From the NCBI GenBank assembly GCA_050329955.1, contig JBHJOH010000013.1, positions 988 through 64,987 of the forward strand: a DNA stretch of 64,000 bases, given 5' to 3'. This DNA is from Acidimicrobiia bacterium. Lineage in GTDB: Bacteria; Actinomycetota; Acidimicrobiia; Spongiisociales; ZC4RG35. Shown piece after piece: positions 43,805 to 46,222 of this stretch. Every line of letters begins with the position of its first letter. Position 1 is the first letter of the stretch. A program made the translations under genes and the position numbers. Below the pieces are notes generated by a model that had not been told where the DNA came from, did no database searches, and was given only the letters and a program-made list of their open reading frames with translations.

Positions 43805-44657
43805 GCAGAGGCGAAGGCGGCTCAGGCTGGTCGGGTTGCCAGTCGCCGCTGATGCGCAGTGCATCGGCGATCGGCTTGAGCGTCTCGAAGCGAAGTCCCG
43901 ATCGGAGTGCCTCCAGCGCCAACACCCGGGTCGGGTCGATGTTGCCGAGGCTGACGTTGAGCCCGAACCGCCCGATCAAAGCCACCTGCTGATCCTTGAT
44001 CGGCGCCTCCCACACGAGACGGTCCGAGGCATGCCCCGCACATCCGGCGATGGTGTCCACCGCCGACATGTCGATGCCACCACCCGCGTCGAACACACCC
44101 ACACCCTTACCGGACTCCCGTCCTTCGACGACCACCCACGACGAGCCCCACTCCAGATCGAGGCACGCCTGTTCGGCCAGCGCGTCAGCCGGGGGCTGCT
44201 GGTCGGGGTCCTTCTTCCCGACCTCGCTGATCACGGTCAGGCCGGCGTCGCGGGCGCACTCGATGACCCGTTTCCGCCGATCGGCCGGGAGGTCGATGGT
44301 GCCGTCGGACACTTCGACCGCCGTGAATCCAAGCTCGCGGACCTTGGCCATGAACACGCGGCAGTGGTGCCGGACGATCGCCGCCTCGAACAGGGTTCCT
44401 CCGGGGAATGTGAGGATGTCCCGCTGAGCGATCGCCTCCAACTTCTCGCGCAGCACCGGCTCGGGGACGAACACCGAAGTTCCGAAGCTGAGTTTCCAGT
44501 GGTCGATCCACGCTCCGGACATCTCGAGGGTGTCACGGGTTGCGGCGAGCCCGAGGCCCGTGTCGATCACCATGGTGACTCCGAGCGAGCGCGGCGACGA
44601 GGTCCGCTCGGCGCGGACCTCATCGGTCAGTGCGAGCTCACCCCACCCGCTGATCAC
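43797..44657 (-). CDS. comA: (2R)-phospho-3-sulfolactate synthase (ComA/XcbB-type), first step of CoM biosynthesis
   Basis: Motif-for-motif match to my recollection of archaeal ComA: [91 protein letters not shown]. Confidence 0.85.
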
Positions 44658-46222
44658 AGGTCGCGCAGGCTCTTGGACCCGGCACGCAGACGGGAGAGCT
44701 GGATGAAATGGGTCGGGTTGAGGAAAAGCTCGTCCATCTCGGCGAGGTCGTCGATGGTCAGACCCTTTCGGTACAACTGGAACAGGTACTGGAAAGCATC
44801 CTTGGCGCCGTACCCCACGTGGTGGGCCCCCAGGACCCGGCGGGTGTCCGAGTCGATCAGCAGCTTCTGGAAACCCGACATCCGGGGCTTGGCGAAGGCG
44901 TAGAGCATCACCCGGTCGGTCGCAGGCAACGCAATCTCCAGCCCGTCCTCGGTCTCGGGCGGCATCTTGATGACCGTTACCGCGTCATGGGTGGCTCGTG
45001 CCTGCTCCTCGCCCATCCCGAACCACGAGACCTCATAGTGGGTGTGGAGGAAGTCCGGGAACTCGTCGACCACGTAGCGGACCTCTTCGCCCATGATGTG
45101 ACGGGAGGCGTACATACCCGACTTCCGTGCCTTGAACATCTCCATCGGGCCACCGATCAGATCGCCGACGGCGTAGACATTCGGCACCGATGTCTGCAGT
45201 TGCGGATTGACGATGACCTGGTTCTTGTCGCCGACTTCCACCCCCAGCACCTGAGCCGCCATTTCCGAGTTGGGGATCTCGCCGAGAGCCTCGAACACAA
45301 AGTCAGTCTCGACCCGCTGGGTGCCGTCGGGGGTACGGATAACCACCGCCCCCACCTTCCCGTTGCCGTCGTCCTCGATCGACTCGACCACCGATCCTTC
45401 CCAGATCTCCATGCCCTGCTCTTTCATCATGAGCAGCACGTAGTCGCGGGTCTCACGGTCGGGGAGATTCTTCAGCAGTTCGGAACGGATCACCATGATT
45501 GTGCGTCGTCCGGTCGCCTGGAAGAAGCATCCGTATTCGACTGCGGTCTTCGAACCACCGATCACGATGACGGTGTTACCCGGTTCGTAGTCCAAGTCCT
45601 CGACCAGGGTCTCGTAGCTGTACACGCCGTGAAGCTCGGCTCCCGGGCACTCGAGCGGACGGGAACGTGCGCCGAGACCGAGGACCAGGTTCTTGGCCGT
45701 GAAGCGCCTTCCGGCCACCTCGACGGTGTGCGAGTCGATGATGGTGCCCTCGGCGTTGAGGATGTACTCCACTTCCAGTTGTTCTTTGGTCTGGAAGTTC
45801 ATGATGGCGTGGGGAGCCACCCGACCGGCTCGGAACAGATCGACCATCTCCTTGATCGAGGTGATCTTTCCTTCCATGTCGGGGAACCAGAACCGGCCCG
45901 AGAAGGTTCGGGCCAGCATCAGCTCGGCGGCGCACTCGCTGAACAGATGGTGCGGCACGCAGGCGTTGTGCGGGCACGATCCACCCAGGAAAGGCCAGCG
46001 CTCGATGATGAGCGGGCGGCCTCCCATGGCGCGCATGTAGGAGGAGCCGAACCGCCCGGCGGCGCCGCCACCAACGAAGATGGCGTCGTACTCGCGGGTG
46101 TCGGTCTCGTCGATGTTGAAGACCACCCGGTCGTCGTCGGGGCTCTCCAACATCGAGTCGATCTCCGGCTCCCAGTCGTGGATTCCCACGTACGTGCCGT
46201 AGATGTCCCACTTGGTGGTCAT
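44654..46222 (-). CDS. xecC: NADPH:2-ketopropyl-CoM carboxylase/oxidoreductase (2-KPCC, XecC-like; DSOR family)
   Basis: [15 protein letters not shown]. Redox cysteines [17 protein letters not shown] (CPHNAC at 45959..45976). C-terminal [22 protein letters not shown], with FLNPTH (44708..44725) replacing the HPTxxE His-Glu dyad of ordinary disulfide reductases. 522 aa. Near-colinear with my recollection of Xanthobacter 2-KPCC. Confidence 0.88.

Follow-up and report, generated by a model that had tools for sequence, protein, structure and literature searches.

Does the open reading frame (ORF) on the minus strand at 44654..46222 of this Acidimicrobiia contig encode a CO2-incorporating, C–S bond-cleaving flavoenzyme, or the ordinary reductase that its database entry implies? 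[quoted passage not shown] Because the public label is generic and NCBIfam holds no specific model, the gene is under-annotated. The initial annotation, made from the letters alone, had read it instead as a true 2-KPCC, and full-length identity of 67%, the redox-active cysteine pair, a diagnostic Phe-His dyad, the anion-pocket residues and a CoM gene context all argue for that reading. We conclude, with a probability of roughly 85%, that the ORF encodes a functional orthologue of 2-KPCC, the last enzyme of the CoM-dependent short-chain epoxide pathway.

When the 522-residue protein was searched with phmmer against all chains of the Protein Data Bank (PDB), the top match was the 2-KPCC of Xanthobacter autotrophicus Py2 (XecC; EC 1.8.1.5; structures 1mo9, 2c3c and 3q6j), found in 1mo9 and four other entries (E = 6.2e-244, 813 bits). 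The next distinct family, mercuric reductase MerA, scored 118 bits (E = 3e-33), and glutathione reductase and dihydrolipoamide dehydrogenase ~90–103 bits. The alignment spans residues 5–520 of the query and 4–521 of the 523-residue 1mo9 chain with a single two-residue indel, and identity, computed on the Py2 sequence rebuilt from this alignment, is 67.1% over 516 positions. Both motifs reported in the initial annotation lie exactly where it had placed them, with the translations it gave: tgc ccg cac aac gcc tgc (45976 to 45959) is read as C83-P-H-N-A-C88 and ttc ctc aac ccg acc cat (44725 to 44708) as F500-L-N-P-T-H505, each identical to its Py2 counterpart (CPHNAC and FLNPTH). Chance occurrence of such motifs is not an issue, as both sit inside the full-length alignment. 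The H-P-T-x-x-E pattern with which the dyad had been contrasted agrees with H467PTSSE472 of glutathione reductase, against which F501LNPTH506 of 2-KPCC has been set (PMC8358701). In the pairwise alignment F500 and H505 share columns with F501 and H506 of 1mo9—the correspondence that the initial annotation had left to be checked—and the chain of the F501H mutant (7mgo) reads “delhlnpth,” with His in the F500 column.

The agreement extends through the active site. Thirteen residues of the Py2 enzyme (R56, F57, C82, P83, H84, C87, H137, M140, M361, R365, F501, H506, and Q509) are identical in the window protein, and 11 of these are invariant in 117 database homologues, the exceptions being position 506 (H in 115, Y in 2) and position 509 (Q in 116, H in 1). 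We take Arg56 to be the CoM sulfonate ligand, His137 to be the enolate-stabilizing histidine, and Phe57, His84, Met140, and Met361, from crystal structures, to be CoM- or substrate-binding residues. The Pfam domains Pyr_redox_2, Pyr_redox, and Pyr_redox_dim, found on an identical protein, correspond to FAD, NADPH, and dimerization domains. The anion pocket flanked in 2-KPCC by Arg365 and His506 (PMC8358701) appears, judging by sequence alone, to be kept as R366 and H505. In the Py2 enzyme acetone rose from 0% to 90% of the product when F501 was changed to His, with NADPH turnover no slower than before, and it made up 63% in the H506E variant (PMC8358701). These product shifts bear out the earlier claim that the dyad suppresses protonation of the intermediate; they also back the claim that the dyad distinguishes the carboxylating enzyme, which nonetheless needs qualifying for its second residue, as the wider survey below makes plain.

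Motifs were tallied in the 120 database homologues nearest to the window protein, none of them below 64% identity, and in a survey of one genome per GTDB species, in which relatives occurred in 390 genomes and the best 80 were examined for motifs and gene context. Of these 120 homologues, 119 carry CPHNAC and one CPHIAC, and 117 have F-L-N-P-[TS]-H. The Phe501 position is invariant in the 79 readable copies among the best 80 genomes, as it is in the 117 database homologues; the His506 position, in contrast, is Tyr in ~10 of those 80, mostly in methanotroph lineages (FISPSY, FLNATY, FLNPTY), and Tyr506 thereby appears to be a natural variant of the carboxylation dyad. The loci concerned are L076, L079, L081–L084, and three others, with Phe501 unchanged there. 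The homologue of the ethene/vinyl chloride degrader Nocardioides sp. JS614 (NOCA_RS00610) also retains the dyad (CPHQAC and FLNPDH), so that the dyad does not reveal substrate chain length. The Phe-His signature marks the whole clade and its proton-excluding chemistry rather than propene metabolism or a C3 substrate, which leaves 2-ketopropyl-CoM, 2-oxoethyl-CoM, and other short 2-ketoalkyl-CoM compounds as candidate substrates. We considered CPHQAC/FLNPDH (JS614) versus CPHNAC/FLNPTH (Py2 and the window) as a C2/C3 discriminator and rejected it, because the ethylene-responsive Methylohalobius crimeensis is represented (P0100) among the 120 homologues, 119 of which carry CPHNAC, although the P0100 motif was not read singly. 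We know of no sequence feature that separates C2 from C3 specificity.

The gene itself is intact. We rejected a pseudogene or assembly artefact on the strength of the uninterrupted ORF (522 codons and a stop), a third-position G+C of 0.85 (66.8% G+C in the window), dN/dS values of 0.12–0.20 in codon alignments with eight relatives, and the identical protein on three independent contigs (NCBI metagenome-assembled genome [MAG] GCA_964398535.1, Logan assembly SRR3310977, and one 65-kb contig); the gene is under purifying selection. Its ATG lies 1 nt past the point where the gene just upstream, for an acyl-CoA synthetase (ACS), terminates, and its stop codon overlaps the GTG start of the downstream ComA gene (GTGA), as expected for a co-translated operon. 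One database homologue (P0049; 799 aa, 77% identical to the window protein) carries both DSOR and ComA Pfam domains; either 2-KPCC and ComA are naturally fused in it, or it results from read-through where the stop and start codons overlap.

Around the gene lies what looks like a CoM-dependent epoxide locus (Table 1). The minus-strand order is MEDS sensor, PucR regulator, MetE2, the 444-aa DSOR, a short-chain dehydrogenase/reductase (SDR), CoA-transferase A and B, ACS, 2-KPCC, and ComA. A divergent operon on the plus strand begins with another SDR and the epoxyalkane:CoM transferase and goes on with CoM-biosynthesis genes, so that the transferase, two SDRs, and CoM-biosynthesis genes are all found in this one locus. 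The aldehyde-dehydrogenase-like (Aldh) protein, the DUF7714 protein, the adenylosuccinate-lyase-like protein (ADSL), the pyridoxal phosphate (PLP)-dependent enzyme (PALP), and the argininosuccinate-lyase-like protein (ASL) correspond to the bacterial CoM-biosynthesis set (PMC9457059, PMC11507031), in which the Aldh-like protein of etn-type clusters has been named “sulfoacetaldehyde dehydrogenase” (PMC11507031). The 444-aa DSOR, of a type labelled “CoADR” in mycobacterial etn clusters, has a single Cys aligned at the CPHNAC site and neither a Phe-His nor a His-Glu motif.

Table 1. Features of the window, with strand and the evidence for each assignment.
Feature	Position	Strand	Evidence
2-KPCC orthologue coding sequence, predicted NADPH:2-ketoalkyl-CoM oxidoreductase/carboxylase (EC 1.8.1.5)	44654..46222	-	ORF; PDB 1mo9 alignment
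Redox-active Cys pair C83-P-H-N-A-C88 (C82..C87 of Py2 2-KPCC), including H85 (H84 of Py2)	45959..45976	-	
Phe-His dyad F500-L-N-P-T-H505 (F501..H506 of Py2), in place of the His-Glu dyad of ordinary DSORs	44708..44725	-	
Arg57 (R56 of Py2), followed by Phe58 (F57 of Py2)	46052..46054	-	Alignment; invariant in 117/117 homologues
Arg366 (R365 of Py2), flanking the anion pocket with the His506 equivalent	45125..45127	-	Alignment; PMC8358701
His138 (H137 of Py2)	45809..45811	-	Alignment; invariant
Phosphosulfolactate synthase ComA/XcbB, first CoM-biosynthesis step	43797..44657	-	NCBIfam TIGR03849, 300.8 bits vs cut-off 280
ADP-forming ACS, acetate--CoA ligase family	46224..48269	-	
CoA-transferase subunit B	48266..49084	-	Pfam PF01144; 68% to JS614 etn-cluster homologue
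CoA-transferase subunit A	49063..49977	-	Pfam PF01144; 68% to JS614 homologue
SDR, S-HPCDH-like hydroxyalkyl-CoM dehydrogenase	49985..50752	-	Pfam adh_short; 48.5% to Py2 XecE, 65.5% to JS614 RS00545
Second pyridine-nucleotide DSOR, ~444 aa, etn-cluster “CoADR-like”	50769..52103	-	52% to JS614 NOCA_RS00550
Divergent MetE-like Zn alkyltransferase paralogue “MetE2”	52241..53281	-	Only ~31% identical to XecA/EtnE
PucR/CdaR-type regulator, EtnR1-like	53451..55112	-	Pfam HTH_30 + GGDEF_2; 51% to JS614 homologue
MEDS-domain sensor, EtnR2-like	55109..55708	-	Pfam PF14417
SDR, R-HPCDH-like hydroxyalkyl-CoM dehydrogenase	55926..56657	+	Pfam; 52% to Py2 XecD, 65% to JS614 RS00605
Epoxyalkane:CoM transferase XecA/EtnE	56879..57988	+	Pfam Meth_synt_2; 80% to Py2 XecA; DNA 77% identical to pXAUT01
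Aldh-like protein	58061..59476	+	76% to JS614 RS00585
DUF7714 protein, kept in CoM clusters	59469..60383	+	
ADSL, aspartase/fumarase superfamily, XcbC/D type	60380..61726	+	Pathway, PMC9457059
PLP-dependent enzyme (PALP), XcbE type	61723..62679	+	
ASL, second aspartase/fumarase member; continues past window end	62676..64000	+	Six-frame translation; 66% to JS614 RS00575
Luciferase-like (LLM) oxidoreductase, convergent on ComA	42884..43804	+	
554-aa protein	41089..42753	-	Beta_methylindole_red_C sole Pfam match (on identical product in L001)
Second luciferase-like monooxygenase	33611..34774	-	
2526-aa ORF with SdrD B-like, DUF11, and other Ig-like/prealbumin-like repeats	25935..33515	+	
Heliorhodopsin	24941..25708	-	Pfam PF18761, E = 2e-96

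Taken as a pathway, these genes suggest that the XecA-like Zn transferase would open an epoxide with CoM and that oxidation by the two SDRs would convert the 2-hydroxyalkyl-CoM into 2-ketoalkyl-CoM. Reductive cleavage of the thioether by the 2-KPCC orthologue would follow, by way of NADPH, FAD, and the C83/C88 dithiol, with Phe500 shielding the enolate from protons and the His505/Arg366 pocket stabilizing the developing carboxylate. Attack of the enolate on CO2 would free the CoM and yield a beta-keto acid, which would be acetoacetate if the substrate is C3 and malonate semialdehyde if it is C2; activation by the co-transcribed CoA-transferase A/B and ACS would let this acid enter central metabolism. 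CoM itself would be made by the island. On these grounds of sequence and context we infer that the window protein is a carboxylase.

Several observations weigh against so direct an assignment. The scanned ORFs of the 64-kb window include no alkene monooxygenase, di-iron or otherwise, and none was found within 10 kb of the 2-KPCC gene in ~24 related Acidimicrobiia loci. The make-up of the cluster (CoA-transferase, ACS, CoADR-like DSOR, and EtnR1/R2-type regulators) resembles that of ethene/vinyl chloride etn clusters, for which the function given to the 2-KPCC homologue is no more than a proposal (PMC8727900). A tblastn search with the EtnABCD proteins of JS614 returned nothing in the Acidimicrobiia loci, and placed EtnABCD-like genes beside the module in four gammaproteobacterial MAGs only (L052, L054, L055, and L057), where the genes for a soluble di-iron monooxygenase lie at ~5600..9800 in each locus and are 38–58% identical to those of JS614; some of these MAGs may come from marine invertebrate hosts, judging by isolate names.

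The alternative that survives best is a variant of the favored explanation, with the same chemistry acting on a C2 substrate: 2-oxoethyl-CoM, derived from epoxyethane, would be converted to malonate semialdehyde, and the island would serve in the detoxification or assimilation of ethylene oxide rather than in growth on propene. JS614 (plasmid pNOCA01) and the ethene/vinyl chloride mycobacteria belong to the same phylum as the window organism, and JS614 has in common with the window the CoADR-like DSOR, SDR, CoA-transferase A/B, ACS, and the MEDS and PucR regulators, along with Aldh, DUF7714, ADSL, PALP, and ASL for CoM synthesis. Identities to JS614 among these etn-type genes are 68% for CoA-transferase, 65% for SDR, ~51–52% for the CoADR-like protein, 76% for Aldh, and ~51% for MEDS/PucR, and this ethene/vinyl chloride degrader is, as shown above, a keeper of the Phe-His dyad. 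For ethene and vinyl chloride, a “CoM reductase carboxylase” that turns 2-ketoethyl-CoM into malonate semialdehyde has been proposed (PMC8727900). The methanotroph M. crimeensis offers a further parallel, in that its cluster has the same module (including CoA-transferase, ACS, SDR, EtnE, and CoM biosynthesis) without a dedicated alkene monooxygenase, and its 2-KPCC homologue P0100 is 67% identical to the window protein; such monooxygenase-less clusters are ethylene-induced in this organism, which has been read as epoxyethane detoxification (PMC11507031). In methanotrophs, however, the epoxide plausibly comes from co-oxidation by methane monooxygenase, whereas no equivalent enzyme is visible in the window, and a methanotroph subclade has Tyr at the His506 position where the window has His.

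Other comparisons pull toward propene-type systems. The 2-KPCC, XecA, and ComA proteins are closer to those of the propene degrader Py2 (67, 80, and 59% identity) than to those of JS614 (55, 49, and 33%), and R- and S-type SDRs are both present, as a chiral C3 epoxide needs—though JS614 has both too. The JS614 2-KPCC homologue, only 55–56% identical to the window protein, sits ~14 kb from the etn operon beside one SDR, whereas the window gene lies inside its operon, and etnABCD adjoins etnE in JS614 while the window has no such genes. Py2 resembles the window in its XecA-type transferase, its R- and S-type SDRs, and its ComA with CoM-biosynthesis genes, but there an alphaproteobacterial megaplasmid carries the system, where the window has an uncultured Acidimicrobiia host and a chromosome-like setting; the inspected part of the Py2 xec cluster is also without the CoA-transferase A/B and ADP-forming ACS of the window operon. 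Conversely, JS614 has the closer counterparts (51–76%) of the CoA-transferases, SDRs, regulators, Aldh, and lyases. The island is thus a mosaic, and these split affinities suggest that it was put together from two or more sources acquired by horizontal transfer. Weighing both sets of affinities, we regard a C2 substrate as a real possibility, though one we would put at somewhat worse than even odds.

A sharper departure from 2-KPCC chemistry would be a reductive thioether lyase that protonates its intermediate instead of carboxylating it, so that no CO2 is fixed and the product is a free ketone or aldehyde. Acetone is a possible side product even of wild-type 2-KPCC (PMC8358701), and the downstream chemistry of C2 pathways is unsettled (PMC8727900). 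Yet Phe501 is invariant across the clade members inspected, the single F501H replacement suffices for 90% protonation (PMC8358701), and the His/Arg anion pocket is kept. The degree of Phe501 conservation argues for selection on proton exclusion, and we consider such a lyase improbable.

That the protein is a generic reductase of CoM disulfide or another low-molecular-weight disulfide, as its DSOR fold, Pfam domains, “FAD-dependent oxidoreductase” label, and weak below-cut-off Lpd, MerA, and glutathione reductase matches would allow, is very hard to credit for a protein without the His-Glu proton relay of canonical DSORs, far below the cut-offs of the generic NCBIfam models, favoring 2-KPCC by 813 to 118 bits, and encoded in the same operon as a separate single-Cys CoADR-like DSOR. 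Canonical DSORs (glutathione reductase, dihydrolipoamide dehydrogenase, MerA) do share with it the FAD/NAD(P)H fold, the dimerization domain, and the CxxxxC pair, but they score only ~100–120 bits against it and have His-Glu where the window protein has Phe-His; the window protein and 2-KPCC further differ from them by an N-terminal extension of ~40 residues and additional insertions. Neither hallmark of the canonical family, the His-Glu dyad or a score above the curated cut-off, was found.

With the 2-KPCC reading thus preferred, the distribution of the module is of some ecological interest. The closest homologues in the genome survey (76–83% identity) come from some two dozen MAGs of Acidimicrobiia. 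Many of these bear the label Candidatus Spongiisociaceae or Spongiisocius, and we take the first of these names to refer to symbionts of marine sponges. In 80 species-level genomes (the best 80 of the 390) the homologue is embedded in the same module. In the Acidimicrobiia one arm runs PALP-ADSL-DUF7714-XecA-SDR and the divergent arm SDR-CoAT-A-CoAT-B-ACS-2-KPCC-ComA, CoAT being CoA-transferase, followed by the convergent luciferase-like oxidoreductase, and the modules are flanked by unrelated housekeeping genes. Between the arms, the window and locus L005 have genes for the second DSOR and for both regulators, MEDS and PucR, to which the window adds MetE2. We tentatively propose, while judging it rather less likely than the contrary, that these loci form a monooxygenase-less island of ~13–20 kb for CoM-dependent epoxide carboxylation and CoM biosynthesis, marked by the 2-KPCC gene and conserved across two dozen species-level Acidimicrobiia. 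In the literature accessible to our search, epoxyalkane or CoM metabolism was not connected with Acidimicrobiia or sponge symbionts in any paper, which is no proof of novelty.

If the island is real and unreported, bacterial CoM use would extend to a new class, and the island would point to an uptake, in marine holobionts, of epoxides that are exogenous or are produced by neighboring microbes or by the host, whether as a carbon source or as a toxin. The conserved dyad Phe would then imply genuine CO2 incorporation, also in pathways thought to handle C2 substrates. Its invariance in both ethene-type- and propene-type-looking modules is indirect evidence that carboxylation, not protonation, is selected in the ethene/vinyl chloride pathway too. 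In practice, a generic label gives way to a specific predicted function, that of a CO2-incorporating, C–S bond-cleaving flavoenzyme, and the signature together with a XecA, SDR, CoA-transferase, and ComA neighborhood picks out the pathway in no fewer than 80 of the 390 genomes, one per species, that carry a relative, many of them uncultured Acidimicrobiia, Burkholderiales, and methanotrophs. What is new is a member in an under-annotated lineage; the enzyme family is well characterized and its mechanism is not new, so that the gain is one of annotation and modest ecological interest.

Two neighbors within or beside the island deserve comment. The luciferase-like oxidoreductase convergent on ComA is kept at that position in Acidimicrobiia relatives only (60–70% identity) and is absent from proteobacterial modules; since the Aldh-like gene is missing in most Acidimicrobiia loci while this gene is conserved, it could be a reductase, specific to this lineage, that completes CoM synthesis. 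MetE2 keeps the H-x-C and DCGL motifs and is without the ~22-residue insertion of XecA/EtnE; it may be a CoM transferase for another electrophile. Loci L031, L032, and L042 (Betaproteobacteria, Methylibium, and Alphaproteobacteria) each have a MetE2 orthologue (71–73% identity) next to their 2-KPCC module.

The setting of the island looks chromosomal. The left 40 kb of the window holds ordinary chromosomal genes (e.g., 2-oxoacid dehydrogenase, sigma factor), and a megablast comparison of the 19-kb cluster with plasmids gave only partial matches, at 72–77%, to pNOCA01 and pXAUT01; we therefore rejected the idea that the window is a known plasmid. The 2526-aa ORF, with its many repeats, is likely a giant surface adhesin. 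The genes for the 554-aa protein and the second luciferase-like monooxygenase lie near the island, where a pair of GntR regulators and an MFS transporter are also encoded; neither the 554-aa protein nor this monooxygenase is conserved in related loci.

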